From the UHGV virus genome UHGV-0228215: 55,667 nt of DNA. One strand, 5' to 3'. Positions 29,101 to 47,825 of this stretch are shown in pieces. Below the pieces are notes generated by a model. It saw nothing but the letters and a program-made list of their open reading frames with translations. It did no database searches and was not told where the DNA came from. A program made the position numbers and the translations under genes. Source of the stretch: a virus. Positions within the stretch are counted from its first letter, which is position 1; every line of letters begins with the position of its first letter.

Positions 29101-31583
29101 ATCTGCACGATATGCCCCTTCTCGTCCCCGTCGACAGACTCATCGTAGACGTAGATGGGTGCGTCGTCATCGGTAGGCAGAAGCTCCACCGTGCCGTCCT
29201 CGTTCGTCACCACCCTGACGCCACCGGTCACGTACACCTGCTTCGGTTTGCCGTCAGCGTCCGTTATGGTCGCCGAGATCACTGCGCCCCGGGCGGTCTC
29301 ATCTCCGACGACAGACTTTGCGCTCCACTCTTTCGTCAGCTCGCTCTGCATCTGAGCCATCGCCTCTTGGTGCGAACGCTCTATGGTGGAGAGACGGCTC
29401 TGCGCCGTCACCACATCGAGGATCGACTGCCGGTCGTTATCGCTCAGACTCTCGTCGCTGAAGAGCTTCGTCAGTTCCTCGGTGGGGTTTGCCTGTCCGT
29501 CCCTCAGCACAAGAGCCATCTGGTCTACCCTTGCCCTTACCTCTTCGTTCTGCCCCTCCAGCACGTCAGCGAGTGCCTTCTTGGCACCTGCAAGAGCCAC
29601 GGGGTTATTCATCTCCTCCTCGGCGACCTCCGGGTGGGTCGCCCTGTAGATCGGGCTCTGCTGCTGCTCCGTGGCTGAGAGGATCGCTCCCGCTCTCTTC
29701 TGGTTCTCCGTCAGTACCTCCTCCTTGGGGTGAAGTCCATCCGTCGCTTCGTCGTACGCCTTCTGAGACTTCTGACGCTCCTCTGGTGTGTAGTGGATGG
29801 CATCCACGACCTGATCGGCTGGGAGCATCTTCTGCCGTCCCGACCGATCAAGTACTAGGTAGCTCGACTGATCCGAACCGATCACCTCGTAGAGGTTGTT
29901 CTTCTCGTCCTGCACGATCGTCAGCCCCTCCTTGCGGTGCATGCGGGCTACCTGCCCGCCCTGTATCCCGGCACCGAAGCCACCCATAAGCGCTCCAGCC
30001 CAAGCACCATAGATTCCGTCCTTCACCGCCTGCCTTGCCACGTTAGCCCACGCCTCCTGGTCTTCCTTGCTCTTCCACACACGGTCGAGTGCGCCGCTCT
30101 GCGCCAGCGTGGTGAGGCTCTCTCCCGGACCCTCCGTCACGGCACCGCGGACGATCTGCCGTCCGGCACTCTTGACGAGAGGGATGGCAAGCGGCTTCTG
30201 TGCGTACTCGCTCAGGCTGCTGAGGCTCTGACGTACGCCCTCGTTACCGGCTATCCCCTTAGCGAGGGAGCGTACAGCCAGCTTCTGCCCCAGTCGTCCG
30301 CCGGCAAGCTTACCGATGGCACTGATGGACTTAGACGCTACCGCACCGCCGAGAGCGTCACCGCCAAACTCTGCCGCCATATAGCCGAGGGAGATCGTAG
30401 CCTTATCCTCCGGGGAGATGTAGACCCCCTTCTCAGCGGCGTAGTCCTCCATGTCCATGATTGCCTGCCCGCCCGAGGAGATCGTCTGCGCTCCTATGCT
30501 CGCCCATGAGATCGCCTGACCGACGGGAGCCGCTCCTGGGATCATAGAGATCGCCTGACCGGCAAGGGCACCGCCCACGCTTGCCGTTGCGCTTCCCAGC
30601 TCTGCCCACGTGCCTTCGGGAACTTCCGACTTACGCATGTAGTCCTTGGCTTCCTCCTTCCAGCGGACGAAGGAGTTCGCCTTATCCTCACTTGCCCCCT
30701 TCTCTCTGAGGTCGTCCCGCATAGCGTCAAGTGCGATCGCTCTCTTCTCGGGAGTGAGATCCTGCCCCATCCGCTGCATTCGCTCCTCAATTAGCTTCAG
30801 GGCGTCTGCCTGCCGTGCTTTCTTGGAGTAGTCGCCCGAGAAAAGGATGTCGTTATGCGTGTGGCTGTCCAGCTCCTTGAGGAGCTTTCCTCTCACTCCA
30901 CGGACACGCTCAAGGCTGAGGGTGCCGTCCTGCTCCATCTGATCGATAAGGTGGATCGCCTCCTTCTCGTCGTCTGAGTTGCCACCGAAGCCCTTCAGCA
31001 GGTCAGCCACGGCGATCTCTGCGCCACCGCGGATCCCTCTCAGCCCGGACACCACTCCGCCACCGAAGGTGCGGGTGGTCTTAGGACCGGTGGAGGTGGC
31101 GATCTCCGGCAGGGTGTCCTCGCTCTCCACAAGGTCTATCGGGGCGATCTCCGTCCCCCGCATACGTCGGTCGGGGTTGTAGCTCACCTCAGACGTGCCG
31201 TAGGGGTTGTACTCTCCCCTCGACGCATCCATCAAGGCTCTCTGGCGTGCCATCTCCTTCCTTGGGTCACGGGTAAAGGTCTTATTCCTCAGTGCCGCTA
31301 CTTGATTTGTTTCTGACGCATAGGGATTGAAGAAAGCCCTCTCGAAGTCCTCATACGTCCCGCCTATGCCGGCACGCTTGGAGAGCTTGTCGTATAGCCC
31401 CCGCCTGTTCGACTCCTTCTGCATGACGCGGGAGAAGTCTTGGAAGGAAAGGGGATAGGGGTTCTTCGTCTGTCGTCCCACTTCGGTGACAAGGTCGTAG
31501 AGTCCTCTGATGTCGTTGCGTAAGCTGTTGTCCGGGTTGTTATTCATAGCTGTATGGTGTGTCTTGTGAAAAGGAGTTACCAA
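14118..31583 (-). CDS. Giant multidomain polyvalent-type protein (~5,800 aa). ParB-like, HEXXH metallopeptidase, N6-adenine DNA methyltransferase and SNF2 helicase modules; DarB-like candidate injected anti-restriction protein
   Basis: Single uninterrupted 17.4-kb ORF. Tool start at 31583 is TTG; first ATG is at 31545-31547. Motifs read directly (see the giant-ORF finding for coordinates): ParB-like GNNRTDAL, HEXXH FLHEAVGHYG, methyltransferase ESSAGIGN and LAITNVPF, SNF2 motifs AHEVGTGKTFT, LLIDEAHNYKN and QRNGRILRQGN. Gly/hydrophobic C-terminal segment. Confidence 0.8.
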   Translation of the reverse strand: MVTPFHKTHHTAMNNNPDNSLRNDIRGLYDLVTEVGRQTKNPYPLSFQDFSRVMQKESNRRGLYDKLSKRAGIGGTYEDFERAFFNPYASETNQVAALRNKTFTRDPRKEMARQRALMDASRGEYNPYGTSEVSYNPDRRMRGTEIAPIDLVESEDTLPEIATSTGPKTTRTFGGGVVSGLRGIRGGAEIAVADLLKGFGGNSDDEKEAIHLIDQMEQDGTLSLERVRGVRGKLLKELDSHTHNDILFSGDYSKKARQADALKLIEERMQRMGQDLTPEKRAIALDAMRDDLREKGASEDKANSFVRWKEEAKDYMRKSEVPEGTWAELGSATASVGGALAGQAISMIPGAAPVGQAISWASIGAQTISSGGQAIMDMEDYAAEKGVYISPEDKATISLGYMAAEFGGDALGGAVASKSISAIGKLAGGRLGQKLAVRSLAKGIAGNEGVRQSLSSLSEYAQKPLAIPLVKSAGRQIVRGAVTEGPGESLTTLAQSGALDRVWKSKEDQEAWANVARQAVKDGIYGAWAGALMGGFGAGIQGGQVARMHRKEGLTIVQDEKNNLYEVIGSDQSSYLVLDRSGRQKMLPADQVVDAIHYTPEERQKSQKAYDEATDGLHPKEEVLTENQKRAGAILSATEQQQSPIYRATHPEVAEEEMNNPVALAGAKKALADVLEGQNEEVRARVDQMALVLRDGQANPTEELTKLFSDESLSDNDRQSILDVVTAQSRLSTIERSHQEAMAQMQSELTKEWSAKSVVGDETARGAVISATITDADGKPKQVYVTGGVRVVTNEDGTVELLPTDDDAPIYVYDESVDGDEKGHIVQMDDLSSPQLVAEDYLDMVQASLDEAETAFRSEVQAAEEQLSQEQAPQNAPEDAGDTTDDFMQSLPRTREGEVDGLKLMSERPDDFIRYLGQLYGEDFVASLPLSKSGALDLKALTPEQTLSVNEAALGKSGAVEAARQRRSKVGAERSKLEAEVKSDLGNLEKRMALRKASEEYRLYDDYVRAAEEQARQELEAQKRSEEEALTPEERQRREEEKRQLAQEKKEREERIRLENERRRREREELERNAEGSTVREYTEDPPRQARARGARLVNGAVVYRQEPMTVEHYADAERAFSQRPGETRIPVKRTIVEADSLQASHKEGRMNPRHFIPEAQPKDRADNGLSSTAADRIASNIRPDEITGGITAYTGAPVVNGRGEVIQGNNRTDALQTMYDGEERHAKSAELYKEYLKTHASEYGMTAEQVDAMAHPVAVDVAEVSDSEAIRLGHRGQTDLESAGADTMNAQTVGEELNSDTDPQSGQSMLVSFFNRIFNRTGANGAELSAKMDNMLNRNAEEGQKFLLENGYITDTQYKNAFETNSEGKRVVTAEAKTALKDVALYQLADVIGPRAMDIFYRLPASARNGLATFLYRDSQASFETSLAPDLGDALLVWDSLRQDPDFAGLTNFESAKIFILGKVSLFGRSELETNLGEASSLAKLLAASMQTQTEEQIAGALNKYYDLVGANETGAKTQSLIPTSQPTDTKAGAAEAVYGRVYEVPSGREKHYRFRRDVAEDFRSRRDALADRITEERRKYAAAMDMARTLGVPTNPHENMSTLPDEVRAGFDETHSVKGWFYKGDNAVHIYLPANVDADDVRATFLHEAVGHYGCRELLGEVGYNQVLDGIASKLGEEEVLRAMKEYCDGSQDLADRVQVRIAMDEWIAHRAESGITKKTVWESIKDFFRKVFGLSGKQIDQSAEMMADDLLRRSAENLQKRAERQQEVATEVSPERAEVRFRSNRSAADFARLRDAAIEQKGLVAPDLNQSSVKVTHVERHSFTGTGLQAIEKAMVWAQGRIVKDHWYHKHMSDGFKYLIDGTSIEKYLSESSTTGSDNLGVHLATLKVLPRVINRSILAETHPDYGKVNGQRSADNGVNNPNMLVHRLYGAIEIDGQLYRVKTTLHERYNADDRAYDYMVTNMELVISGSSTSDALTSSTNKHTSTERLAVAKLLKGVEKSYDPGKLLLDESATTGSEEPTIRFKRANTAFNGPSLFGETDPRGVRQGLFNADGTPRTLEGQSTVKKASLFTNDTQESTTKKSETEGSPQTQEAKQAPKKTLKPSLFGEINKVVPLVSSGQVSIGDFAQTTVEKNSYGNVNSRRESPQNRSVGGEAREEAQRAEPKRVDRSNDGNRSYDQTGGRGLLELFDNEQVEKTSSPNPKERHSSGREESSVNERQKPIQDRKREDDTGSALPVGEALHPKNQNNYRVTEGEQPTTPAARYKANINAIDLYKKLSEEGRTPTKEEQKVLASYSGWGGLGQYFNVGAYRETLIDKLGKDGFDSAAMSVNSAYYTPFPIINSLWAAARKLGFRGGKILESSAGIGNILAAIPDDVNRVSTIHAVEIDDLSGNILDMLYPDAKVDVSGFQNVSIAPGSIDLAITNVPFVSGLNVYDRENKDLSGLFRDLHDFVIAKNVRALRPGGLGVFITSSNTLDKSSTLKNWLSTSGSADVIGAFRLNNETFGGTKVTSDIIIIRKRVNGKIDPHAIDVSGTSIYKMSAGTYDSDTHTPITINTYFVNHPEFMGGEPSIGFDQGDTSYRPMAIGVYPTQSVDQDRALSSWVSSLGSIKQEPAIRQQETSADYDSTDKIQGSILIDSSGRICCSDKGLAVPLEGINENKVRGYTKQEAVRDYVELKSALDNLIRYQLENTTDEGIETFIRALNTAYDTFVGKYGYLNDNLGISFIKNNDSEFASVAALEDVTLTDKDDKNGRPIKRYEKTEIFRSRQIAGPKKYKISNLTDGIQVSLYKNGSVDVDFIAESLGMEKETTRRQLLTEGLVYEDPDGGELIVSYLYQSGDIRQKIKIAEEALSRDGGERFESNLKALRAVVPPSIPAHLVPLKLGSTWAPTKLLDDYLKEKTGREATFNHTGDIWTMTISPMSELSWQERMDIANKDADMGVRSSVVHKTVSFSELVVYALNNGRPDFSYSYKNEYGDRETVRDKEATDLARQKIEDLREDYVSWVSDYLQEKQEVAKEIEEVYNNTFNSYVTPRIPDNMLPSLFEGSANGISLYPHQKRAVLKTMNQSVMLAHEVGTGKTFTLISSAMEMRRLGIAKKPMIVVQNATIGQFASSAKKLYPAAKILALDDTDRGKSGRMRFYGKIKYADWDMVIVPQSTFELIANSPAREEAYKLKRIDEIEHVISVLEDQQSEDNLENNSISQKIRQLRRQVSDQKSDMALAKVKRMSEKSKQKKISNVSAQIDKLLDKAVDEEQYFEDLGIDALLIDEAHNYKNLNFSTALGREIKGVTGTSSKKAENVQIKIETIKEKNGGRNVVMATGTPISNTASELWVFMKYLMSEADMRRLGIYYFDDFVNNFGKIQTMLEFTTSGKFKANTRFAGYDGLPELIRIWSSVSDTVLTKEVGQVNDQIPEIEMGQDQDVFLDQTPILHQYMNYVRSELEKFENMSGSEKREKSYIPLQMFGKASAAAIDVRLVINQNIDDPHSKLNKAVDELYRTYSETKSYKGTAALFCDKYQNKVSGFNVFEDIKAKLVAKGIPEDQIEIMRPGMTDKKKQAIFDKVNSGAIRIIMGTTPTLGVGVNIQRRLHTLIHLDAPQRPMDYMQRNGRILRQGNLHKDWGKTVRILRFGVKDTLDVTSYQRLKTKAAFIDSIMNGGEILNDPLSSRTIEQEEEGIFDNPVAQLSGVESAMAKMSEERKLKRLRNKKTTWGRDQVYFNSQVKIHAEDIKKTKDYIKKIKSFVSRLDEVFPDRRVHNIKIDGVSAPNVEEAMKLLRAKSKGTTKIADKLMRRPSDNPVNVDVPISLDGHKATLSLVMISGVGQDDAGYAKVSLLKSVQFECPDLGISRKTIDGTVSIPNAFEKVINDIISGEQSERQLNALTDRVTQKEAEKKYAEERLASNRVFPEEKELQETERRVAELTKQMDEELRAKEEKYATLDSDEETIDFSETEEDGTDDEDDGYRFRSGTDDYGANNTIITRDEYIDLIDRIADENASLSDVDFMSIGRQLATFHIEAGSRSFRAFIDAMVTDMGDRVRPYLKSFYNGARDLPSLYKYTGDMDWYDKVSKTDVTRVVPIAKPAVEETPGVKDIKKAKRPRKNILAARFEQFQQEGDEYVKAFMPLYEKIKLDYYDTDRNRFTDDLDREYSIVHRNADKGLEWYSNGSEFFVRKTPNAAHNSNVSIQTKEVGEDPLYDVSRLTDIAYSSGNEIRSIRNLPIEELYDKLSKETPYARPRKNGKPVFYPYGVEVGERLLVEDPDPFPNGATPFDNKTHRMNLITIRGHSLKSMLEAGYALGAKEVSIDLVETDGSNVYYRLDFGEWKALGLTQTENPEATLAHHVMLTDPKNAVPRADVRFRRAEQSGDVSSAAEAAIDFVRNATPKNTTIDDVLRFKRVYHNSPHLLKKADGSFVDPETGERLGFDHRFMGSGEGFQAHGWGSYFSVKDLEGYGQTEQLIPYEEMPEMTIPKDDLSRYTDEQKRWAEMILDLYNDGEGDVGNTFISPLERLYSDRSAFDELYDSQEDANTRWDDFVDFYKNRIEEDVRPFHNKYVVEIPNPSDSNYLEEDAPLSEKQASAIKRTMEEKSGSEYDESFYSDFANNYPEWNTLSGGSLYKVLSDYLLKEYTDSPSQAAQWTSEMLNEAGFVGIHYNGRRDGECYVIFNEKDAKITEHIRFRRTERTDPKSMTDPINPQWDGEWYSSEDLTGKSTADLLELPSAPATPEKRPTQSVAEYAETMSRHYADPRVRFRTGAHKENLRAPQPPRITDGMSLYEVAQLQHEYNRNYRDYLSSSMKRMDALVTTKGRFIRYMVDSARPVELFCKEMERMGIGMTPEQNIYQDMMTQSSRELNIRKQEVEPLVTKLTDRIRDLREQKLLDKVMDVSYTFTDEDTNETKTIKRADGYDKVSLYFQAKDIVECEQLGLVSRGREGFEKVVTEFGKSSNHITPEAYIASFEASVGKANAEVLCDNMRKMSRWSIDRLHGAGLMTDDQYRSLTQSPRRYYAPQRGFKITEESDRNAYERVEMTAEGRQSLSGDPIAYMQAIMNTTVMRVVRNQDLLHLYEWVTQHQQELARRGVLEIGETYYRKSGVDEKGNPIYMPSKQAPTIEELRHDADVRRQVAKLRMEQKRLDQSHDKGETADYVYGIKSKEISNKISDLNNSIEILYRDPTPLRGDSREQEETSRRTVKVYKDGVEQQIHFSPQYRGELVADVLNGRPSMDQDTRFYRSVGRYIEKAGAINFVSKATRFMSALMTQYNPNFAVTNALRDYGTALISNVSDFGWAYQRDFMANYAKVQKTVLKYAMSDAYSDGTYPSGKYGTYLKEFFDEGAATGWSFLPDVVKIRQTMKEMSDPSLKQKFVNGKYGVANAFGLKQGIGMLTEASELNTRFAEYVTSRERGYSSKEAAKHAKELTVNFNRKGTLAGVFGSLFGFWNASIQGTNKIVRLGKPAAVWCGTLFAGGLAQGLLYALGAPDKDDERAFTEWEMMTNLCIGDVKIPLPQGFRGFWGTGVQMALALAGKKDWQGSVIDGMQYLIGELLPNEAASLSNIVEWDDVTGNVELNTTKVVRDIMPTAIQPVADVRLNMNFMGNPVYHEPFVKSQEGQIAQRTLGKKRTKQIYRDISDAAWYAMGGSLERNDRMSRDGTKILPDDKWLNPSVIEHVFEGYTTGVGKTLADVATSVSAVSSGDLSELRKLQIVNVLTKQEKDYSDSDRSYWKLMDFYRSRQQTMSNLRKAKEGKDLKRYKEMTRRASELAPRMTGEQLTEKIWEDGTKDEKLYVTWLETKALLKQIDKGTVTKEEVAPTIDRLTEQFRELR

Positions 31584-33800: not shown

Positions 33801-35027
33801 TTATCTTAGTTTGTCGTTTTGTACATACGTGTAATTGTGCTCAATCTCCACAGCCTCGATGTGCGTCCGGATGCCGAGCGTCGCCCTGAGGGCAAGAGCG
33901 AAGTAGCGCGCCTTATTCTTCGGCAGGAGCCCGCTGTCTAAGTCTCTGAAGTGGCGGTGCGGCTTGTCTGTCGTGTGGAAAGGGTGCAGGCTCTCCACCG
34001 CCGTCCGTCGGTGATTGACGTCGTGGAAAGCATCCCCGCTCTCAGACCAGCCGATGCCCCAGCGACCCTCCTTTACACCCTCCAGCCAGCCACGTGTCCA
34101 GAGACGGATCACGTTCTTGATGTACGTGGTGCCGAAGGAGAATGGGCGGGACACCATCAGGACGGGGAGCGACTGAAGGGCGTGCCCCTCGTCCCACCGC
34201 TGAACCGCTACCGAGCCATCCGCACGCACGCCGTAGGATCGCACCCGGGGGTACATATTGGACCCCTCCACGATGTTACCGCCCGATAGGGACTGCTCCA
34301 TGAAGTACCACTCCTTGGCACCGAAGGAGAAGACCAGCAGCACCGACGGGAAGTGGTCACTCGCCACTCTCAGCTCCTCCGTGTGCGGGTCGTACGTCAT
34401 CCGCGCCGGCTCCATGAGGAAGCCGCGGAAGTCAAAGTCAGTCAGCCCGTAGCAGTCGGCAAGAGGGACGAAGTCGAAGTGTGGCTCCCTCCGCCTTGCC
34501 CAGATCCGCTCCGAGAGGTTGCCCGCCACGTAGGTTGATGTGAGGAGCATAAGCCCCGAGCGGGAAGCGTAGGCGATGCCGTAGGGGGTCTGGCAGATCA
34601 CTCCGGAGATGGGTGCCTCCATAAAGGTAGGGGACGACATCCGCGCGTGGACAGCGTCCGCCGTTGCCCCTGCCAGCTCGTAGACCCCCGCGTCGGTGAA
34701 GACGTAGGAGGGGTAGGAGCCGAAGTTGCGATCCGAGATATCCAGCTGCCGGGTCGCCTCGGCAAGGATCCGCCCCGTACCTACGGTGTAGGTGGTCTCG
34801 GGAGGGAAGGCGAAGGGGTTATTCACCTCGCTCGCCTTGATGACGTTGTGCGCCTCGTACGAAGCCGTCTCGCTCACCCTCGGATCGGTGACGGTGGTGC
34901 GGTACTTCGCACAGATCATGCTGACCGAGTGCGCCAGCACGGACTCGGTAGCGAGGGTGTTGTACGTGTCCCCGCTGCCGGTGTTCCATCGGTTTGTCGT
35001 CCTATTCCCTGTAGTCTCGTCTGCCAT
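33801..35027 (-). CDS. Hypothetical virion protein (408 aa)
   Basis: ATG at 35025-35027 verified. Immediately downstream of repeat array 2. Confidence 0.3.
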   Translation of the reverse strand: MADETTGNRTTNRWNTGSGDTYNTLATESVLAHSVSMICAKYRTTVTDPRVSETASYEAHNVIKASEVNNPFAFPPETTYTVGTGRILAEATRQLDISDRNFGSYPSYVFTDAGVYELAGATADAVHARMSSPTFMEAPISGVICQTPYGIAYASRSGLMLLTSTYVAGNLSERIWARRREPHFDFVPLADCYGLTDFDFRGFLMEPARMTYDPHTEELRVASDHFPSVLLVFSFGAKEWYFMEQSLSGGNIVEGSNMYPRVRSYGVRADGSVAVQRWDEGHALQSLPVLMVSRPFSFGTTYIKNVIRLWTRGWLEGVKEGRWGIGWSESGDAFHDVNHRRTAVESLHPFHTTDKPHRHFRDLDSGLLPKNKARYFALALRATLGIRTHIEAVEIEHNYTYVQNDKLR

Positions 35028-35031
35028 AGCT

Positions 35032-35232
35032 AAAACCGCAACTGGTTATGAGTAAAACCGCAACTGGTAATGGGTAAAACCGCAACTGGTAATGAGTAAA
35101 TCCGTTGCGGAACATGAGCAAACTCGTTGCGGAACATGAGTAAACTCGTTGCGGAACATGAGTAAATCCGTTGCGGAACATGGGTAAACTCGTTGCGGAA
35201 CATGGGTAAAACCGTTGCGGAACATGGTTTTA
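35032..35232. repeat. Tandem array 2: 9 x 22-bp repeats. 3 units AAAACCGCAACTGGTAATGAGT, then 6 units AAATCCGTTGCGGAACATGAGT
   Basis: Read directly. Unit starts in strict 22-bp phase at 35036, 35058 and 35080, then from 35102 to 35212. The two sub-arrays carry the same core in opposite orientation. Confidence 0.9.
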
Positions 35233-35305
35233 CCATTCGTCCGACCCGTCCGACTCGTCCGACTTGTCCGACAAGACAGCGTCCGAGGATATGACTTTCT
35301 CCTCT

Positions 35306-37072
35306 TCATCGTCTTCCACCTCCTGTGCCGTTATTTCTCGTGGTGGTCGTGCCGGCGCCTATCGTCGCTATCGGCTCCGTCTCGATATAGTACGCCACGG
35401 CGAGGTCTGGGTGGGGACGAAGTGCCTGGCTCAGCACCTCCGTCCAGCCCTTGGACGGCTCGTGGACGTAGAGCGTGAAGTGCCGCGCCCGTGTGTCGGG
35501 GTAGGCAAAGAGCGCCGGCATGTGGAAGCTCTCCCGCACAATGGGGGTCTCTCGCTGTACGTGGACCGTGCGCCCCTCCACCGCCAGCTCCACGTCCACT
35601 AAGAGCGTGGAGCCTGCTTCAAACGTCTCCTTTGCCTTGGAGCCGTTATAGGGTCTGTCGTCCCTGTCCCAGAGGAAGAGCCGAGCGAAGCCGGGGAAGA
35701 GCGTCGTATGCACGTCCGAGAGCCTCAGCCGACCATTCATCGACCGCACGCCCTTCGCCCCGTACCTGTGGTGGCTCAGCGCCCCCGAGGGCATCAGCTC
35801 CTGATACCGGATGTCCGTGTCGCGGTAGACTGTCGTCGCCCTACTTGGTATCACCATAAGCCCGTCCGTGGCACGGTAGTACTTCCCCGCCTTCACGTCA
35901 CGCCTGAGGTCGATCGAGTGGATGAGGTAAAATTGCGAGGCGTTGGTGATCCGCTCCTCCGTCCGCTCCTCCACCTTCGTCTTGTCCGAGATGTCGTTTC
36001 GGACAACGCTCTCCGACCGGTCGTAGTAGGTGACGTGGCGCGCACGCTTTCCTAAGCCCCAGCGGCTCATATTGATCGCCCCACGAAGAGTGACCGCTCC
36101 GCTCCGCATGTCTATCGGCTCGCTGGCAAAGAAGTCTATCGACGTGATGATGTCCCGCCACGGCTCCAGCGCCAAGAGATCAGGCAGTGCCACCTCCACG
36201 CTGTAGGAGCGGAGGGCAGGCGGGGCAAGGTAGACGCTTCCCTCGTCCGCCAGCCACGTCAGCACGGGGTGCATAAGTGGCGAGTAGAAGTCCCGGATGA
36301 AGTCCTGCGGCATGATGAGGAGCGGTGCGGAGGGGCGCATGATCCGCCCGTCAAAGAGACGGAAGGCATAGCGGATACTGACGGGATCGAAGAGACACGC
36401 CACCCCGTCTTTCGCCTGCTTCTCCTGCCGGAGCTTCCCGATCAGCCCCTCCCACGCCTCACGGATACGCGTCCAGACTTCGTCTTCCGTCATCGCATTG
36501 ATCTCGTCCTTCCCGCCGATCAGGACCGCCCCGGCGTCCTCCAGCTCCTTCTTCGTCGCTGTCTCAGGTGTGGCGAGCTTTACCTCCTCCTTTGTCTTCC
36601 CCGCTCTCATCTGTAGCTCCGGCAGGTCGGGGAAGGTGCCGAGAGCGTGATAGGCTCCATCCCTCCAGAGAGCGTAGTAGATATCCCGCTCGAAGACGAA
36701 GGAGAGGACGTTCCCCGTCTGCTCCACGCCGGTAAAAGCTCCGAGGGCTGAGGTGTCGCTGAGGACGAGCAGCTCACGGGGATTGCCCTTGGCGTGGCAC
36801 TCGTCGTCCGTCTCGTACCAGTCCACCGCGAGCCCTTTCGCCCGCTCCTGCACCACCAAGAGATGGCGGTACTCGCTCGTCTGGTGGAGGAAGACCGAGT
36901 GGAGCCGGTAGCCGTCCCGCACCCTCAGCCCGCTCTCCTCCACCTTGGCGATCTCGCACGGGGTGTAACCCCCGCCCGAGAGGGGGCGAAGGTTGTAGAG
37001 GATCATGGCGTCACCCTCGGTGTAATTGTCCGTGGTGGACATTCCCCTAAGCTCTGTGCGTCTCTTCTCCAT
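35306..37072 (-). CDS. Hypothetical head-associated protein downstream of portal (MuF-position candidate)
   Basis: 588-aa ORF directly after the portal gene. ATG at 37070-37072 verified. Confidence 0.3.
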   Translation of the reverse strand: MEKRRTELRGMSTTDNYTEGDAMILYNLRPLSGGGYTPCEIAKVEESGLRVRDGYRLHSVFLHQTSEYRHLLVVQERAKGLAVDWYETDDECHAKGNPRELLVLSDTSALGAFTGVEQTGNVLSFVFERDIYYALWRDGAYHALGTFPDLPELQMRAGKTKEEVKLATPETATKKELEDAGAVLIGGKDEINAMTEDEVWTRIREAWEGLIGKLRQEKQAKDGVACLFDPVSIRYAFRLFDGRIMRPSAPLLIMPQDFIRDFYSPLMHPVLTWLADEGSVYLAPPALRSYSVEVALPDLLALEPWRDIITSIDFFASEPIDMRSGAVTLRGAINMSRWGLGKRARHVTYYDRSESVVRNDISDKTKVEERTEERITNASQFYLIHSIDLRRDVKAGKYYRATDGLMVIPSRATTVYRDTDIRYQELMPSGALSHHRYGAKGVRSMNGRLRLSDVHTTLFPGFARLFLWDRDDRPYNGSKAKETFEAGSTLLVDVELAVEGRTVHVQRETPIVRESFHMPALFAYPDTRARHFTLYVHEPSKGWTEVLSQALRPHPDLAVAYYIETEPIATIGAGTTTTRNNGTGGGRR

Positions 37073-37078: not shown

Positions 37079-39118
37079 TTACTGTACTCTCGCGGGAAGC
37101 TCGCCGGGGGACTTCATCTGCTGCATCATCTCCCGCACCATGGCGGGGTTAAGCATATAGCCGTCTGTCGCCGCCTGCGCCTCGGCAGGGTCAGCGGGAG
37201 CCTGCCCGAGAGCCTGCTGTCCCTGCTGTGCCATCATCATCTGCTCCTGCTCTTTCTTGTTCAGGTAGTCTAAGAGCTTATCCTTGAAGGGGTAGTTGCC
37301 TACTTCGATCATCCCCCGTAGGTCGAGGAGGTTATTCGGGTCGTACTGCTTCAGCTGCATAAGCACTTCGTTTACCAGCATACGATAGGCGGGCGTGTCC
37401 GTCCCCTCGCTGATGGCGATCTCGACGTCCACATGCTTCACCCTGTCGGGGTTGTACTTGATCTTCTTCCCTGTCTCCTTGTCCCAGACGTAGCGGGGCT
37501 GGGTGTAAAACTGCTGCATCAGCTGGACGCACAGCTTGTCCCTTTTCCGCCTAAAGGAATTCATACTCTCGAAAAGCCCGTTCAGCGACACCGCAGAATT
37601 CTGCGACTGCTGAGCGTACATCGCTGCGGGGGTGCCGGCAAGGGGCTGGCGACCCTGAAGGGCTCCGAAGACACCCGACACCTGCTCCGTCATGGACATC
37701 GCCATCGTCACCACGTTTAGTGGCTGGAGGGCGTCCTGCATCGAGTTCATCAGCGTCGGCATCGTGTTACTTCCGTCACGTGCCGTCACGTAAGGGATCA
37801 CGGCGCTGAAGTCTGCGAAGTGCTCCTCGATGTACTTCAGATCGTACCCGTAATCCTCCGCAACACTGCTCATCGGGACGAAGAGGAGCGACTTGGCGGC
37901 ATACTTGGTCAGCAGGTCGCTCGTGGCGAAGAGCTTATTGATCAGCTTATTCGTGCTGATGAGGTCGGTCACGAAAGGGTGAACGTCACCGATGAAGAAC
38001 TCGTGCCACTCCCAGACGAAGGGCGGACGCTCGTGCCAGTAGGGATTGATCCCCATGTCCAGCACAAGGGCGTCAGGGGTCAGGTAGTAGTACCGCCAGA
38101 AGGTGTCGACGCCCCAGCGGTACTCAAGAAGAAGCATCTCGTCTTCCGGCACGCCCATCCCTGTCTGCTCCACGATCCGCCGCTCGTTCTCCGCCTGTAG
38201 ATCCTCCTCCGTGGTGTCGAAGACCGCATTGTAGGTTCCTTTGAGCCTGTCGTGTACCCAGAAGCATTCCGCCGTCTCCTTACGCCAAATCTCGTACAGA
38301 CGACACCGCCCGCTCTGAGCGTCCGACGGCGTGAAGAAGTCCCTATGGAGCCGTGTCCCCTCGCTTGTCATCTCATGGATCAGCTCATCCCGGTGGTCGC
38401 CCCCGCTGTACGCCCCGCGGATCTGACGGGCGCGCGTCTTGCTCCCCTTGGCGAAGAGGCGGACGATATCATCTACCGACAGATCGTAGAAGGCACCCAC
38501 GAGCGAGCAGTCGGTGTAGCGGGGATCACGGGCCGCACTGTCAGCGAAGAAGCTGTAGGGATCCACGTAGTCGATCACCACGTCCACGCTATTCTCCCGC
38601 GCCGCCCAGCCGCACCGAGTGACGGCAAGACCCGTCACCATCAGTTGCTTCAGCTCCGCTAAGTCCAGCTTATTGAGCTCATCCTTGTTGTAGATCGTCT
38701 TGAGCGTTGCAGTGAGTGCCTCGCTCTCCTGCTGGTGATCCTCAGCGTGCGCCACGCACACCGGCGTGGTCTTGACGCTCGACCAGACGCCCTCGATGGT
38801 TCGGAGGATGTTTCGCACAATGTTGTACTGAGAAGGATTAAGTCCCATCTGCCGGTACTGGTTCCGCTCCTTGATCCAGCAGCACCTCCGCTCGTCCCAG
38901 ATCAAGTCGGCGAACTGGTCGCCGAAGACAAACTCCTCGTTGCGGCTTATCTCGGCGCGCCACTTGTCCATGGCTCCCCAGGCGTTGTGAGCCGACATCA
39001 GCAGGTCCGAATCAGACGCAAAGTAGTCCCTCCGCGTCCGGCTCCGCTCCCCGCTGCGGTAGGGTGCCGGCTGCTTACCGTACCGCTTGGCGTATCTCTT
39101 GATTGTGCGTGCGTCCAT
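37079..39118 (-). CDS. Portal protein (start revised to internal ATG at 39116-39118; tool ORF extends to 39508)
   Basis: About 680 aa with a Gln-rich C-terminus and a LNGLFESMNSFRRKRDKL loop-like segment. The revised start removes the overlap with the plus-strand gene at 39236. Position relative to head genes supports the call. Confidence 0.55.
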   Translation of the reverse strand: MDARTIKRYAKRYGKQPAPYRSGERSRTRRDYFASDSDLLMSAHNAWGAMDKWRAEISRNEEFVFGDQFADLIWDERRCCWIKERNQYRQMGLNPSQYNIVRNILRTIEGVWSSVKTTPVCVAHAEDHQQESEALTATLKTIYNKDELNKLDLAELKQLMVTGLAVTRCGWAARENSVDVVIDYVDPYSFFADSAARDPRYTDCSLVGAFYDLSVDDIVRLFAKGSKTRARQIRGAYSGGDHRDELIHEMTSEGTRLHRDFFTPSDAQSGRCRLYEIWRKETAECFWVHDRLKGTYNAVFDTTEEDLQAENERRIVEQTGMGVPEDEMLLLEYRWGVDTFWRYYYLTPDALVLDMGINPYWHERPPFVWEWHEFFIGDVHPFVTDLISTNKLINKLFATSDLLTKYAAKSLLFVPMSSVAEDYGYDLKYIEEHFADFSAVIPYVTARDGSNTMPTLMNSMQDALQPLNVVTMAMSMTEQVSGVFGALQGRQPLAGTPAAMYAQQSQNSAVSLNGLFESMNSFRRKRDKLCVQLMQQFYTQPRYVWDKETGKKIKYNPDRVKHVDVEIAISEGTDTPAYRMLVNEVLMQLKQYDPNNLLDLRGMIEVGNYPFKDKLLDYLNKKEQEQMMMAQQGQQALGQAPADPAEAQAATDGYMLNPAMVREMMQQMKSPGELPARVQ

Positions 39119-39235
39119 AGTGATCGATCTAATTGCGCCAAATATCGGACGGGGAGGGATTAGTTTTTGCCCGCGACTGCCGACACCCTGCACTGGCGGG
39201 CAATTCTCCCAGTCGCAGGGGCTTACTTTTGCCCC

Positions 39236-39556
39236 ATGAGTGAGAAGAAGAAAGCATACCGACCGATAAGAGCGCGAGAGGAAGAGATCCCGAAAGGACC
39301 CATCCACTCGTCCAACATCGCCATTGCCGAGATGCGCCACGACCTGGCGACCATCATCCGAAACAATATCGGCAAGCTCGATGCTGACCTCGCCTCGCTG
39401 GAGCCGAAGGACCGCATTATGTGTGTCACTCGTCTGGCTGAGTATGTGCTCCCGAAACAAAAGGAGGTCGCCGCTCACGTGGACGGCGAGATCAGCCAGA
39501 ATATCCAAGCCTCACTCTCTAATCTCGATGATCTCTTTGGAACCAACAAGGATTGA
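39236..39556 (+). CDS. Hypothetical small protein (MSEKKKAYRPIRA...)
   Basis: ATG at 39236-39238 verified. First gene of a plus-strand island. Confidence 0.3.
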   Translation: MSEKKKAYRPIRAREEEIPKGPIHSSNIAIAEMRHDLATIIRNNIGKLDADLASLEPKDRIMCVTRLAEYVLPKQKEVAAHVDGEISQNIQASLSNLDDLFGTNKD

Positions 39557-39825
39557 TTGTAAGTTGGAATGATATAGACTAACTGTTTTGTGTTTACAAG
39601 ATTTCGGCGACCGGCAGCAGTGATGCTTCCGGTCGCTCCCATTTGTTAAAGTCCGAAACTCATCACACTTTTCCTTTGCCGTGTGGGAATAACTCCCTAC
39701 ATTTGTCTCGCTAAGACGTTAGCACCTCGCCTCCCTCGGGAGGCTGTGAATTTAGGCGAGCGAAAGCTCAGCGCTATATGCGCAATTGGTACCGCTTCGG
39801 CAGTACCTCAAAAAGATCGTTTAGG

Positions 39826-39866
39826 GATCCCCCCGCCATTGTTTTCCTTTGGCGGGGGTCTTTTTA
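39826..39866 (+). terminator. Rho-independent terminator (CCCCCGCC stem, GGCGGGGG, T-run)
   Basis: GC stem 39830-39837 / 39851-39858, followed by TCTTTTT. Confidence 0.6.
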
Positions 39867-39939
39867 TGCTCTAACTATTTGGAGTGTTAGAAAGAAATAG
39901 GTAATTTTGTTGGAGTAATAACAATGACATCACACAACC

Positions 39940-40173
39940 ATGAAGCTTACAAATGACTCTCTAAGGGAGGAAATCAGGAAAGAGATGGAGCGTCAATGTG
40001 TTACGCCCTATCAGCTCTCTAAAGAGCTTGGCATCTCTCAGCAGACCATCCACAATTATCTCAGCGGGATCACGGACGGGATTAACTCAGTGACACTGAC
40101 GGCTATGATGGCTCGGCTTAACTTCTCGGTTTTATCCCCCGAAGAGTTAAACTATATCAAATCCGCGATTTAA
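39940..40173 (+). CDS. XRE-family HTH transcriptional regulator (Cro/CI-like)
   Basis: VTPYQLSKELGISQQTIHNYLSG is a canonical XRE helix-turn-helix. Confidence 0.75.
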   Translation: MKLTNDSLREEIRKEMERQCVTPYQLSKELGISQQTIHNYLSGITDGINSVTLTAMMARLNFSVLSPEELNYIKSAI

Positions 40174-40284
40174 TACTCCATTTATTTGGAGTATTGCGAG
40201 ATTATGGCTACCTTTGGAGTACCAAAGAGATAAGAGGGGGCGCAACCCCTGTCTCAGCGGTGTAACCCTAAACGACTTTTTGCA

Positions 40285-41055
40285 ATGACTACCTACAACT
40301 ACAGCAGCTACACAAGAGAGATCGCCGAGACCGCAAACGCGGAGAAGAAGCGTAACGTGACCGAGAAGTATGTCTACACCGAGGACTACGAGGCGTACGG
40401 CGATGAGCCATTTCTCACCACAGACGACCAGGACTGTAGTCCTGACGTAAACGAGTGTGGCAATGAGGCAGACCAGATGTTTGCAGACGTGCTTTTCGGA
40501 GATTTTGACACCCGCAACGGTGAGGACTACTCCTCTTACCTCGAGCGGGTTTACTTCCCCGTGTGTGAGGGCTTCGGCGTAGAGCAGGACACCGATGTCT
40601 ACGACATCATCACCGTGGATGCGGACGGATACGTGGTGGCACACCACTACACCTTTGACGGGTTCCTCCCCAACTGCGACCTATATGACACACCCGAGGA
40701 GGCGACACACGAGAGCAGAGCGTGGGTTGATCGGATTGCTGACGAAAAGGGACTGACTGTGCAGCCAACCACCGCATGCAGTACCGGCTATCCGAAGGAT
40801 GAGCAGTTAGCCTTCGTAGGCTTTAAGGACTTTGAGCAGGCAGAGAAGTTTGCAGACTACTACGACTTAAAGCTCGTACACCTCGAGCTGAGAGATGGTC
40901 AGACCTTTGCCCATCGCTGCAGCGGGGTGCCAGTGGAGGCTTACGACCTCGAAGAGATAGAGCCTGACAGCTACGATCCTGAGACTGACAGCCGCCTCGC
41001 CATGCAGTACCACGACGATGTCACGACACACATCATCGGGGCATTAATCGACTAA
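40285..41055 (+). CDS. Highly acidic protein, candidate DNA-mimic / anti-restriction (Ocr/ArdA-like by composition only)
   Basis: 256 aa with a very high Asp/Glu fraction in runs (DDQDCSPDVNECGNEADQ, EEIEPDSYDPETD). Stand-alone gene followed by a strong terminator. Confidence 0.35.
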   Translation: MTTYNYSSYTREIAETANAEKKRNVTEKYVYTEDYEAYGDEPFLTTDDQDCSPDVNECGNEADQMFADVLFGDFDTRNGEDYSSYLERVYFPVCEGFGVEQDTDVYDIITVDADGYVVAHHYTFDGFLPNCDLYDTPEEATHESRAWVDRIADEKGLTVQPTTACSTGYPKDEQLAFVGFKDFEQAEKFADYYDLKLVHLELRDGQTFAHRCSGVPVEAYDLEEIEPDSYDPETDSRLAMQYHDDVTTHIIGALID

Positions 41056-41083
41056 CACACTTACACACACTCTATCCAAATAA

Positions 41084-41128
41084 GGCGGCAGGCGTCGGGC
41101 TTCTCAGCTCGGCGCCTGCCTAATTTAT
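41084..41128. terminator. Bidirectional terminator between convergent genes
   Basis: Stem GGCAGGCG (41087-41094) / CGCCTGCC (41113-41120), followed by TAATTTATT. Confidence 0.6.
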
Positions 41129-42846: not shown

Positions 42847-42849
42847 ATA

Positions 42850-43100
42850 TATACGTATTAGGCATATATAGCCTATACTGCCATTTCCCTATATCCCTAT
42901 ATATCATATGTTTGTATCTTTCTTATTATTATCTATAAGTTGTATAGTATAATGTAGACTAATAGTCTTATACTACTGTAGTTCAGTGGCTTTAGTTGTC
43001 TACAAAAGCGGTTACAATGAAAAGCTTCTTGTAGACACTTCTCGGCTGTCTACATTTTTGTAGACTTATTTTGTAGACAAGTTTGTAGACAAATTGTTTC
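42850..43100. promoter_or_regulatory. Putative origin of replication: AT-rich unwinding region plus 7 copies of the iteron TGTAGAC(A)
   Basis: AT-rich stretch 42850-42990. TGTAGAC or its complement GTCTACA found at about 42953, 43007, 43030, 43048, 43059, 43072 and 43084, the last three at 12-13 bp spacing. Directly 3' of the primase-helicase gene. Confidence 0.5.
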
Positions 43101-43104
43101 ACGC

Positions 43105-47772: not shown

Positions 47773-47825
47773 GATAAAGTGTACTTGAAGTTATATAGTG
47801 AATGATTGAAATCGTCTGTACAAAT

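Follow-up and report, generated by a model that had tools for sequence, protein, structure and literature searches.

Phased 22-bp repeat arrays in a Bacteroidales prophage as candidate binding platforms for phage HU-HIG proteins

Gene content and repeat arrays of the prophage

The DNA analysed, referred to below as the window, is a stretch of 55,667 nucleotides from a temperate gut Bacteroidales prophage, in which a tyrosine integrase gene lies beside a tRNA fragment and whose relatives sit integrated beside host genes. It carries three arrays of 22-bp tandem repeats, here labelled A, B and C. As an earlier note on this DNA had stated, all three occupy intergenic gaps of one minus-strand gene train, and the neighbouring genes that it named were borne out by domain and family assignment (Table 1). 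Array A precedes the gene for an HU-HIG protein, array B lies between a 588-aa and a 408-aa gene downstream of the portal gene, and array C separates the exonuclease gene from the SSB gene.

Table 1. Positions of the repeat arrays and of the genes and short elements around them
Feature	Position	Strand	Description
Tyrosine integrase gene	197-1537		Beside tRNA 3′ fragment (95-137)
TerL gene	2754-4862		15 bp downstream of HU-HIG gene
HU-HIG gene	4878-5357	-	159 aa; PF18291, 5.7e-25; 88.2 bits against a cutoff of 26.2
Array A	5385-5472	+	4 Z units, (r)AAAwCCGTTGTGTGAAACgrg; 27 nt upstream of HU-HIG start codon
408-aa gene	33801-35027	-	Directly downstream of array B; phrog_32516, function unknown
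Array B, X block	35031-35096	+	3 units, TAAAACCGCAACTGGTwATGrG; register reading gives X = TAAAACCGCAACTGGTAATGAG
Array B, Y block	35097-35228	+	6 units, TAAAyyCGTTGCGGAACATGrG
Inverted copy of constant element GTAAAACC	35226-35233	-	Upstream edge of array B
Four copies of 9-bp repeat TCGTCCGAC	35237-35272	.	Adjoins array B
588-aa gene	35306-37072	-	Directly upstream of array B; phrog_32516, N-terminal part
Portal gene	37079-39508		P22-like; followed by 588-aa gene, array B, 408-aa gene
VapE primase-helicase gene	43105-45612		Adjoins GTCTACA cluster rather than a 22-bp array
Solitary constant element GTAAAACC	47067-47074	-	About 20 nt upstream of 377-aa gene
SSB gene	47131-47772		Enc34/gp2.5-like
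AT-rich leader TTTCAATCATTCACTATATAACTTCAAGTACACTTTATC	47773-47805	-	Between array C and SSB start codon
Array C, proximal part	47806-47935	-	Z′ unit, hybrid, 3-4 X′ (AAAACCGCAACTGGTTACCGy), one V-like (AAAACCATTTGTACAGACGAT)
Array C, distal part	47936-48009	-	3 Y units
Exonuclease gene	48006-49232		DUF2800/PD-(D/E)XK
HTH_17/excisionase-like gene	49722-49925		67 aa; invariant between genomes

The stop codon of the 588-aa gene was confirmed by an orthologue in L041, which ends at the same place; a suspected frameshift extension of this gene was dropped in view of that end and of a stop codon in the acidic frame of the relative L005. An 87-aa open reading frame that runs through array B on the minus strand (35046-35309) was considered as a coding repeat and rejected as an artefact, staying open only since none of the three minus-strand frames of the unit contains a stop triplet.

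Unit types and their orientation

The count of nine phased 22-bp units in array B given by the earlier note was reproduced: three X units followed by six Y units fill 35031-35228 with zero indels. TRF reported period 22 at 35031-35104 (3.4 copies, 92% matches, score 127) and a second period-22 run at 35092-35226 (6.1 copies, score 207). The description of these units as two sub-arrays in opposite orientation was wrong, as the TAAAACC start and the ATGAG end are oriented alike in all nine. The flip between X and Y is limited to the core heptamer, CCGCAAC or GTTGCGG, within a near-palindrome; since the flanks keep one orientation and only this short core is flipped, X and Y are taken to be two unit types. 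Three sequence elements are more frequent than chance would give. When up to 2 mismatches are allowed, CCGTTGCGGAAC is found 12 times where 4.6 are expected, a count attained in 0 of 100 shuffles; AACCGCAACTGGT is found 9 times against 0.94 and GTAAAACC 10 times against 0.45.

The X block stops 4 nt short of the ATG (35027) of the 408-aa gene. At the other edge, the constant element occurs once in inverted orientation, in relatives too, and pairs with the first array B unit as a 9-bp inverted repeat. The GC-rich 9-bp repeat beyond it, here non-coding, corresponds in inverted orientation to a repeat within the gene at 49241-49699. Array B is bordered by an ATG on one side and by this repeat on the other, with no AT-rich flank, and array and repeats together constitute a lineage-specific insertion between the two phrog_32516 genes.

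In array A, the four related units that had been claimed near 5383-5470 were confirmed, TRF placing 3.8 copies of AAATCCGTTGTGTGAAACGAGT at 5385-5468. The core CnGTTGCGG proposed to be common to all three arrays is not so shared; array A has CCGTTG only. Array C is real (47826-47910 plus 47932-48011 by TRF) but more complex than the reverse-complemented pair of X and Y types that had been described: on the gene strand, 47806-48009 reads as three Y units, one Z′, one hybrid unit, three to four X′ and one V. The TAA stop codon of the exonuclease gene falls inside the first Y unit of the distal part. Relative to the direction of transcription, array C has the opposite orientation to A and B, and B and C, 12.7 kb apart, are mutually reverse-complementary over 60-124 nt. 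Dyads are found in the cores of several types (GTT-N6-AAC in Z, Z′ and W; CTGTACAG in V; CCGCAAC-TG-GTTaCcG in X′). The leader between array C and the SSB gene resembles that between array A and the HU-HIG gene, each an AT-rich stretch of only 29-40 bp.

Because the units run head to tail without spacers, and as neither cas-like domains in the proteins scanned nor an Rfam match were found, the earlier exclusion of CRISPR holds. By-eye comparison with DnaA boxes, ECF-sigma and sigma-54 promoters, the LexA box and the IHF consensus gave matches that were partial or wrongly spaced. The arrays were also rejected as CI operators or stoperators: the operators of CI are unrelated palindromes at 53930-53990 (TCTTACGC...GCGTAAGA), and in relative 178430, whose CI is only 26% identical, the unit types are unchanged. 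A partition centromere was likewise rejected: no Par domain turned up among the proteins scanned, the integrase lies beside a tRNA fragment, and relatives are integrated.

Conservation and turnover among related phages

Arrays are kept at the same three loci in all of the approximately 15 close relatives read, and the block order of array C (Y, Z′, X′/W, V) is conserved throughout them. Copy number and block composition, by contrast with this order, shift between genomes that are 85-93% identical: array A in relatives is always of Z type, with one to five copies, whereas units of the Y/Z family number at least four in every array B examined and at least two in every array C. At 4-fold-degenerate sites the window diverges from its relatives by 14-40%; the Z cores of array A show 0 differences in 56 sites, and the cores of every type are near-invariant across 10-14 arrays, variation being found at positions 1, 5 and 19-22. 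On this comparative evidence, the arrays are maintained by selection.

The shifts in copy number and blocks between such similar genomes, the insertion of array B between genes that are adjacent in a relative, and the presence of a phage exonuclease and a gp2.5-like annealing protein would all suit functionless or selfish minisatellites that arise by slippage and are spread by exonuclease/annealase recombination. We regard this origin as very unlikely, since the cores are invariant while neutral sites differ by 14-40%, array C keeps its block order, and every lineage member read has retained arrays at the three loci. A pair of inverted repeats at a distance of 12.7 kb would moreover be a recombination liability where the genome carries its own recombinase, and analogous arrays recur ahead of HU-HIG genes in distant phages (see below).

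An action at the RNA level was also weighed, in which the arrays would govern the processing or stability of the mRNA, serve as translational leaders, or let the B and C transcripts pair as antisense RNAs. Running from stop codon to start codon, the arrays are necessarily part of the polycistronic message; B and C are reverse complements over the 60-124 nt given above, and the RNA of array B has a better fold than its shuffled versions (z = -3.3). We nevertheless consider such a role extremely unlikely. Array C RNA is not significantly structured (z = -1.4); the array B structure needs complementarity between Y and X, which is missing in those relatives whose array B consists of Y and Z or of Z only; and in L056 Y units are present in array B and absent from array C. 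Opposite orientations yield different RNAs, Rfam gave no match, and strict 22-bp phasing is a feature of duplex DNA.

Loci B and C carry arrays only within one narrow lineage. The genes that flank array B are just 6 bp apart, with no array between them, in a relative at about 60% identity, and in the distant isolate Bacteroides phage BS-TP4 (portal 32% identical) no such arrays were found in the first 50 kb. The earlier reference to a triplicated array in Bacteroidales phages was therefore overgeneralised for B and C, and only the array upstream of HU-HIG proved general. The repeats are not host-wide elements, as a scan of 185,579 species genomes gave only unrelated 22-bp repeats; AACGGNTTTA at a 22-bp period, three times over, had eight matches, all of unrelated units (Prevotella, Acidovorax, Ardenticatenaceae and others). 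Unrelated 22-bp arrays also turned up with the pattern GGTTTTA in three copies. In IMG/VR, a Y-Y pattern matched relatives of this phage only. The view that these are non-coding, phased, phage-specific repeats of a type that would bind protein, as put forward in the earlier note, is supported by these data.

HU-HIG genes and the repeats upstream of them

All eight distinct HU-HIG loci of the clade (the window, L060-L063 and L066-L068; HU-HIG identity 47-100%, homologues 47-84%) have 3.3-5 units of a 21-22-bp tandem repeat directly upstream, within 110-150 bp. Other tandem repeats with units of at least 18 bp are few in these loci of approximately 12-20 kb. The loci span at least four phage architectures, with the array and its HU-HIG gene placed before TerL, in the gap between tail fibre and holin genes, before RecT, or after capsid genes. 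The array was absent at three very distant HU-HIG genes (28-33% identity), and an IMG/VR profile search for further HU-HIG loci returned two close relatives only. One relative has an in-frame deletion of the HU domain; its array A is down to a single unit, and its arrays B and C are kept in full.

This spread of architectures bears on two further explanations. The HU-HIG gene occupies the usual place of terS, directly upstream of TerL, which suggests a reading of the arrays as pac sites recognised by HU-HIG as a small-terminase equivalent. Pac sites often lie in or beside terS, only 15 bp separate HU-HIG from TerL, and no TerS was recognised. In other phages, however, the cassette of array and HU-HIG gene is far from the terminase (tail/lysis gap, before RecT), L062 has its own TerS-like gene adjoining a Terminase_3 gene, and three pac sites of different unit types would be unusual; we place this reading among the exceedingly improbable ones.

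Replication iterons, acting as secondary origins or enhancers bound by a phage initiator, were likewise considered. A 22-bp period at such copy numbers is characteristic of classic iterons, and dispersed iteron clusters are known in P4 (ori/crr), SPP1 (oriL/oriR) and R6K. The arrays have this period in helical phase, with 4-11 units and no indels, array C is inside the replication module, and short AT-rich stretches flank arrays A and C. Against this, a far better origin candidate is located directly downstream of the VapE gene (42819-43105), where an AT-rich stretch of 260 bp is accompanied by GTCTACA, repeated eight times and present in both orientations. No initiator of Rep_3, lambda-O or DnaD type was found among about 48 distinct proteins scanned, the VapE primase-helicase having a C-terminus without an assignment; the AT-rich flank is missing at array B, which is itself absent from the relative at about 60% identity, and the same array type precedes HU-HIG beside lysis or tail genes in other phages. 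We rate iterons as very improbable. The earlier argument that three arrays could not be an origin is invalid on its own, as P4, SPP1 and R6K illustrate; its conclusion is probably right because of the better origin-like region at 42819-43090.

For the HU-HIG protein of the window, an AF2 model (pLDDT 79) places an N-terminal beta-hairpin (residues ~10-27) on an HU/IHF fold. Foldseek with this model gave 4FMR as the best match, with a probability of 1.00 to 4FMR, HU and IHF, including IHF-DNA complexes; the Ig domain that occludes the DNA cleft in 4FMR is absent from the window protein (PMC5499826). Residues 11-22 are the most variable block of HU-HIG among 83 clade members (mean 1.25 bits), and in the hairpin invariant and variable positions alternate, giving at least 18 alleles. 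Alleles of the hairpin region (residues 9-27) include ERKTMTKDGKREPRQIATQ, ERKSLTKNGTRQVMQVASQ and ERKSLTKTGDRKMMQVATQ.

In sequence comparisons, unit type covaries with this hairpin, physical linkage being a partial confounder. The window, L036 and L037 have HU-HIG N-termini that are 92-98% identical, and all three have Z units. The protein of L066, which has X units, is 89% identical to that of the window after residue 40 and 68% before it; that of L067, also with X units, is 90% identical to L066 at the N-terminus and 74% elsewhere. Between L060 and L061 the proteins are identical at residues 28-75 and different at 10-27, and the cores are unrelated. The divergent islands of this pair are the array and gene nucleotides 41-80, and because about 100 nt of similar sequence (75-90% identical) separates them, the difference is not one swapped block. 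Part of the covariation could nonetheless be physical linkage, as array and hairpin are only 30-150 bp apart; when the window is compared with L066, no more than about 20 nt of conserved sequence separates the two. The unit types of arrays B and C recur beside other HU-HIG genes as well: the X block of array B is identical at 57 of 60 positions to the HU-proximal array of the sister phage L067, and V units resemble the arrays of L060 and L062.

The same linkage could account for the covariation if the arrays were cis-regulatory sites for another phage or host binder, be it an activator, a repressor or an antiterminator, and the HU-HIG gene just one of the genes regulated. The HTH_17/excisionase-like protein and a host transcription factor are among the candidates. 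HTH_17 proteins of Bacteroides elements (Xis2c, Xis2d) are transcriptional activators, and the protein is present in all eight relatives with a readable region. The arrays lie in intergenic gaps ahead of three functional modules, and AT-rich leaders with a common TTCAC...TATAA motif follow arrays A and C and those of L066 and L067. However, the HTH_17 protein is unvarying between genomes of different unit types; it cannot therefore explain the type-specific conservation of cores and was rejected as a type-specific binder. Another binder would also leave unexplained both the hypervariability of the HU-HIG hairpin and the recurrence of the same architecture before HU-HIG in unrelated phages, some of them without HTH_17 within 10 kb on either side. 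No Bacteroidetes host sigma-A promoter (TTTG-N17-23-TAnnTTTG) was found at any array, the three matches in the window all lying at 39675-40216 ahead of a plus-strand moron, and array B, 4 nt from the ATG, has no room for a promoter. Intrinsic terminators were not found at the arrays either. On balance we regard a different binder as rather unlikely.

A 377-aa hypervariable protein (45912-47045), without a Pfam, PHROG or PDB sequence match, was rejected as the binder, its three allele groups not tracking unit types. Of the binders suggested in the earlier note, the HU-like protein is favoured by the comparative evidence, and ParB-like and antiterminator proteins were absent from the approximately 48 distinct proteins scanned.

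Discussion

We propose that phage HU-HIG proteins bind cooperatively to the 22-bp arrays, which would serve as their platforms, an interpretation to which we give about an even chance of being right and in which binding itself is predicted. Each unit, two helical turns long, would combine a shared element, (G)AGTAAAwCC(G), with a type-specific core of ~10-12 bp, often with a dyad. The conserved HU body would read the shared element and the hypervariable N-terminal beta-hairpin (residues ~10-27) the core, and on some four phased units dimers would line up along one face of the helix as a short filament, bending or wrapping the DNA. Through array A the protein would autoregulate its own gene, here together with the terminase and lysis genes behind it. 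Arrays B and C would be lineage-specific composites, in which two to six units of the phage's own Y/Z family are joined to X, V and W blocks that may be the cognate types of other HU-HIG alleles. Array C is placed where transcription passes from the exonuclease gene to the SSB and replication genes, and array B where it passes from the portal module to the virion-protein genes; protein bound at either would control read-through or give the DNA a higher-order structure. The sequence data establish the arrays, their conservation by selection, their linkage to HU-HIG genes and the covariation of their type with the hairpin; that the protein binds them, that hairpin and body share recognition in this way, and that regulation results are predictions.

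Several observations constrain the binding-platform proposal. Array B of the window consists of three X and six Y units without any Z unit, so that the model needs a window allele that accepts Y too, or proteins acting in trans. The inversion of array C has no obvious reason under it. The retention of full arrays B and C in the relative that lost the HU domain, and the three very distant HU-HIG genes that lack an array, also count against it. The consensus of every unit type was read for the IHF consensus WATCAANNNNTTR, and no match was found. In the analysis of Burroughs et al. (2017), evolutionary patterns make HU-HIG proteins unlikely as sequence-specific transcription factors (PMC5499826).

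A wider extension, which we think unlikely, is that HU-HIG proteins and arrays let competing or co-resident Bacteroidales phages recognise one another in an allele-specific way. In every phage the HU-HIG gene would be autoregulated through the cognate array, and B and C would be concatenated landing pads for several alleles, self (Y/Z) and foreign (X, V and W). The HU-HIG protein of a resident prophage would act in trans on an incoming relative, for exclusion or kin cross-talk, and the incoming phage would escape through block swaps. Such a system, if real, would account at once for the hypervariability of the hairpin, for the rapid turnover of blocks and for the way HU-HIG has expanded in particular lineages of Bacteroidota, and might reveal a phage-phage recognition code.

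HU-HIG proteins are a large, fast-evolving, Bacteroidota-specific branch of the HU/IHF family of DNA-bending proteins, with a solved structure and no known ligand or function, and Bacteroidota are among the dominant phyla of the human gut. The binding-platform hypothesis puts forward the 22-bp units as a putative DNA target, residues 10-27 as a candidate specificity element, and at least two candidate pairs of protein and site (Z and X), with the prospect of mining six more unit types and a set of at least 18 hairpin alleles. If correct, an HU-fold protein would have been turned into a programmable sequence-specific binder, and a handle would be gained on gene regulation in temperate Bacteroidales phages, whose promoters and regulators are largely unknown. 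Should binding by HU-HIG be refuted, the arrays would still be selected, modular non-coding repeats with another binder to find.

Comparison with known systems

Iteron-Rep systems (the 22-bp iterons of R6K, those of P1 and RK2, P4 alpha with ori/crr, and SPP1 G38P with oriL/oriR) resemble the present arrays in their helix-phased direct repeats (17-22 bp), in having several clusters, in the position of repeats beside the gene of the putative binder, and in the co-evolution of protein and repeat. Unlike in those systems, no Rep-type initiator was found here, the origin-like region is separate, array B is without an unwinding element, the associated protein is of the HU family, and several unit types are mixed in blocks.

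Among repeat-array regulators, the omega protein on the heptads of pSM19035, ParR on parC of R1, Cox of P2 and Apl of 186 are small dimers that polymerise on runs of short repeats, direct or inverted, at few loci, including in front of their own gene. Runs of repeats at few loci, one of them before the gene of the putative binder, are also seen here. Their repeats are of 7-11 bp and their folds RHH or HTH, whereas here the unit is of 22 bp and the fold that of HU, partition genes are lacking, and the prophage integrates.

TF1 of SPO1 is a phage-encoded HU-family protein with preferred sites, and IHF has sites such as H′ in lambda attP and I1 in cosB. With these the system shares a phage protein of HU/IHF fold and, as predicted here, site preference and bending for transcription or DNA transactions. 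It differs from their single sites of ~35 bp in its phased 22-bp tandem arrays and in the absence of the IHF consensus, and from classical HU and IHF in that the proposed specificity element is an extra N-terminal hairpin with many alleles.

The stoperators of Cluster A mycobacteriophages have been proposed as roadblocks to elongating RNA polymerase; they are single 13-bp sites, 20-30 per genome in one orientation, which equal the immunity operator and co-vary with the repressor (PMC9283540, PMC6550527). Shared features are the repressor-type sites in short intergenic gaps of long operons and the temperate lifestyle. The present sites are instead gathered in three tandem arrays, one of them inverted, which are unlike the CI operators and unchanged where CI is 26% identical.

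In line with the earlier note, which knew of no described function for them, the searchable literature yielded no description of arrays like these, and a link of HU-HIG to cognate tandem arrays appears neither in PMC5499826 nor in other searchable literature. The HU-HIG family (PF18291; structure 4FMR) is described as showing lineage-specific expansion and rapid divergence (Burroughs et al. 2017, PMC5499826), and this rapid divergence fits the hypervariable hairpin of the window protein.

Architecture of the three arrays

Array B was examined by reading the sequence between 34850 and 35450 and with TRF. As the earlier note had claimed, nine units of exactly 22 bp could be observed, and the two further related arrays that it listed, here A and C, are both present. 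Its description of sub-arrays in opposite orientation was mistaken: the frame TAAAwCC...ATGrG is common to all nine units in a single orientation, and only the heptamer CCGCAAC/GTTGCGG, within a near-palindrome, is flipped between the two unit types, X and Y. Motif counts in the window greatly exceeded those in dinucleotide-preserving shuffles.

In all arrays a unit has two parts, a shared element, (G)AGTAAAwCC(G/A), and after it a core that differs with the type: GTTGCGGAAC in Y, GTTGTGTGAAAC in Z, GTTGTGGGAAAC in Z', GTTTCCAGTAAC in W, GCAACTGGTwA in X and X', and ATyyGTACAGAC in V. Dyads are found in many cores (GTT-N6-AAC, the palindrome CTGTACAG, CCGCAAC-TG-GTTACCG). Read on the plus strand, arrays A and B share one orientation and C has the opposite one; the genes flanking all three are on the minus strand. 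A separate repeat of 9 bp, GTCGGACGR, is present in either orientation. Within the genes for a 152-aa protein and VapE it yields SD(K/E/G) linkers, that of the 152-aa protein differing greatly in length among relatives, and the copy adjoining array B is non-coding and inverted relative to those at 49404-49486.

Coordinates of arrays, genes and other features in the window
Feature	Position	Strand	Description
tRNA 3' end fragment	95-137		adjoins integrase gene
Tyrosine integrase	197-1537	+	
HU-HIG gene	4878-5357	-	159 aa
Array A	5385-5472		four Z units, AAATCCGTTGTGTGAAACGAGT; 27 nt upstream of HU-HIG gene
Giant ORF	14118-31583	-	5821 aa
Genes flanking array B	33801-35027; 35306-37072	-	
Array B	35031-35228		three X units, TAAAACCGCAACTGGTAATGAG; six Y units, TAAAyyCGTTGCGGAACATGAG; gap between 588-aa and 408-aa genes, ending 4 nt from ATG
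GTCGGACGR repeats	35237-35272; 44477-44510; 49404-49486; 49586-49621	both	
Moron cassette	39675-41120	+	promoters 39675-40216; 256-aa ORF 40285-41055; strong terminator 41087-41120
GTCTACA repeats	42819-43105	both	eight repeats; likely replication origin
377-aa protein	45912-47045	-	
Array C	47806-48009		related to array B; gap between exonuclease and SSB genes
HTH_17 gene	49722-50048	-	excisionase/MerR-like
Paralogous early ORFs	51935-52242; 53000-53195	-	...LRERIIEEVKELK... and ...LREKILEEIRKIE...
Operator region	53930-53990		between CI-like repressor and first lytic gene; likely immunity switch
CI-like HTH/S24 repressor	53993-54682	+	
Window ends	1-200; 55590-55667		ATTTGCA repeats near both

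Genomic context

Essentially the whole window is a single temperate prophage of a Bacteroidota host, with a minus-strand gene train of ~52 kb between integrase and CI. Its order is early genes, DUF2800 exonuclease, Enc34/gp2.5-like SSB, 377-aa protein, DUF1599, VapE primase-helicase, VRR-NUC, SNF2, P22-like portal, 588-aa gene, 408-aa gene, giant ORF, BACON-domain protein, HU-HIG, TerL and lysis genes. The central part of the single giant ORF (~16-26 kb) has 47-52% GC, against ~60% elsewhere, and the distant Bacteroides phage BS-TP4 also carries a giant gene, at 1511-17686 of its record (~5391 aa). The two neighbours of array B match one profile, phrog_32516, in different parts (20-309 and 622-738 of 968 positions), so they probably correspond to a single protein in some phages.

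The 377-aa protein, without Pfam, PHROG or PDB match, is restricted to the window lineage, where its 37 clusters all share at least 60% identity. Among close relatives no other gene diverges nearly as much (60-89% identity, versus mostly 80-96% for neighbours). There are three allele groups, with a conserved middle between variable N- and C-terminal parts, and the protein may serve in host-phage conflict as target or as weapon. The HTH_17 gene is called from an internal Met in relatives (MKTLTEMP..., 67 aa), which is probably its start; the 67-aa protein is almost invariant throughout the lineage. The two small paralogous early ORFs sit where a listing of ORFs of at least 80 aa shows apparent gaps. 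The tRNA fragment and ATTTGCA repeats are probably att core and arm-type sites, and in integrated relatives (L052, L054, L057) the CI-side end adjoins a host HMGL-like/PYC_OADA gene.

Arrays upstream of HU-HIG genes

The window protein belongs to the HU-HIG family; its best Foldseek match was 4FMR, an HU-HIG structure, ahead of HU and IHF-DNA complexes. Its homologues make up a clade of 88 clusters at 44-96% identity. Seven loci from the main branches, in quite different temperate phages, were inspected, and in every one the gene was immediately preceded by a tandem repeat with a unit of 21-22 bp, present in 3.3-4 copies. No such array was seen at three HU-HIG genes much further removed (28-33% identity). 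The X block of array B and the HU-proximal array of L067 are identical at 57/60 positions.

Tandem repeats directly upstream of HU-HIG genes in the seven loci
Locus	Setting of HU-HIG gene	Repeat unit	Resembles
L060	between tail-fibre and holin genes	GTTCGTACAAAyGG...	V
L061	between tail-fibre and holin genes	GGTTACCCAATGCGGTTTTCAC	X'
L062	before RecT	CCAAATGTACATATGAGCAGAT	V
L063	between tail-fibre and holin genes	GTATGCGCCAACGGTTTTACTC	Y
L066, L067	sister phages, of the same type as the window	wACCAGTTGCGGTTTTACTCAT	X
L068	after capsid genes	GAGTTCTAGTTTCGTCACAAGA	none

Unit type tracks the N-terminal 40 residues of HU-HIG, not overall similarity. The Z carriers (the window, L036 and L037) have their N-terminal segment in common; L066, with X, shares 68% identity with the window before residue 40 and 89% after it, and L067, also with X, matches L066 at 90% in the N-terminus and 74% in the remainder. 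L060 and L061, with unrelated cores, are identical over residues 28-75 and differ over 10-27. In this pair two divergent islands lie ~100 nt apart, the leader and first codons between them being conserved, which argues against a single swapped block; between the window and L066 the conserved spacer is only ~20 nt, so linkage is still a partial confounder. Residues 11-22, placed in an N-terminal beta-hairpin of an HU/IHF fold by the AlphaFold2 model (pLDDT 79), are the most variable block in the clade, with alternating invariant and variable positions and at least 18 alleles. In relative L038 (IMGVR_UViG_3300012661_000001, 9956-10130), an in-frame deletion has removed the whole HU domain, leaving 43 aa, and array A is down from four units to one.

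Variation within the lineage

About 15 genomes sharing at least 93% identity in the flanking proteins were sampled among IMG/VR contigs, metagenome contigs and integrated prophages. In all of them the arrays are kept at the same loci, with turnover of their composition. In the window array B reads Y6+X3, and in the other genomes Y5+X3, Y4+Z3, Z4+X4, Z5+X3, Y4+Z1 or V4+Z4+X4. The blocks of array C always come in the sequence (Y)-(Z')-(X' or W)-(V or Z''), each in 0-5 copies, and after them come a conserved leader, rich in AT, and the start codon of the SSB gene. Array A is of the Z type without exception (1-5 copies), and Y/Z-family units number at least four in every array B and at least two in every array C. 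Fourfold-degenerate sites of flanking genes differ from the window by 14-40% whereas the cores are near-invariant (array A, 0 differences in 56 core sites), so the cores are under purifying selection; the units vary mainly at positions 1, 5 and 19-22. That the arrays are a functionless minisatellite is improbable.

The insertion at locus B is young: L041, a relative with 59% identity in the 408-aa protein, has only 6 bp between the two flanking genes. The first 50 kb of BS-TP4 held no such arrays.

Alternative functions

The units lack spacers and are therefore not CRISPR, as the earlier note had held. The genome search it proposed, run with three AACGGNTTTA elements at 22-bp period over one genome for each of 185,579 species, returned unrelated repeats only, so the arrays do not belong to a host repeat family. 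Bacterial genomes (L028-L035) and IMG/VR (L008-L027) yielded many unrelated arrays with 22-bp tandem units; several, from Prevotella, a Bacteroidales MAG and Ardenticatenaceae, have AA(C/A)GGCTTTA in common, and several lie at the ends of large IMG/VR phage contigs, e.g. GGGGGGTTTTACACCTCTATTT.

Neither terminators nor Bacteroidetes-type promoters (TTTG...TAnnTTTG) were found at the three arrays. Such promoters occur in the window solely as three tandem plus-strand copies preceding the moron, a cassette missing in relatives 3300012661 and 3300011844, where 39643 is joined directly to 41075. The likely immunity switch holds a TATATTTG -7 box along with palindromic operators, TCTTACGC-N12-GCGTAAGA and CGTAAGA-TT-TCTTACG. 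CI is excluded from acting in the manner of a stoperator repressor: its operators bear no relation to the units, and relative 178430, heteroimmune given a CI only 26% identical, keeps the same unit types. The arrays also failed the defining tests for partition sites, and a pac site is highly improbable.

Replication iterons have little probability: no Rep-type initiator was recognized among the proteins scanned, array B has no unwinding element, and a much better candidate origin lies directly downstream of the VapE gene, where GTCTACA repeats within an AT-rich 260 bp are succeeded by a very AT-rich stretch with TATATA runs, an arrangement like that of P4 or SaPI. An RNA-level role is very improbable. 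Predicted folding was significant for array B (z = -3.3) and not for array C (z = -1.4), the structure of B relies on Y/X complementarity that relatives lack, and Rfam gave no match anywhere in the window.

Discussion

The best-supported reading of these comparisons, to which we give an even chance, is that the arrays serve as platforms to which HU-HIG proteins would bind cooperatively. A phased module of about four units before the HU-HIG gene would serve autoregulation, and similar modules would have been copied, in the window lineage, to junctions B and C, joining the phage's own Y/Z-family blocks to X, V and W blocks, the putative cognates of other alleles. Binding there could gate read-through into SSB/replication genes and virion genes, organize DNA, or mediate cross-talk with HU-HIG of other phages.

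Several points count against HU-HIG binding. Array and hairpin are physically linked, array B of the window is without a Z unit, and the inversion of array C has no explanation. Relative L038, with its HU domain deleted, keeps arrays B and C intact. HU-HIG proteins were also judged unlikely to be sequence-specific regulators (Burroughs et al., PMC5499826). That another protein is the binder is unlikely; by weight this rival precedes iterons and minisatellite, with the RNA-level role and pac site last.

The arrays make a directly testable system of an enigmatic, abundant gut-bacterial protein family, for which no DNA target is described in the searchable literature. Phased protein-binding repeat arrays, putative here, are a known sort and not a new principle; new are the tie to an HU-fold family with many specificity alleles and the composite multi-allele arrays. 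In how they would work, the arrays are akin to iteron/Rep pairs and to the repeat arrays bound by the regulators omega, ParR and Cox/Apl, and by protein fold the nearest case is that of SPO1 TF1 and IHF.
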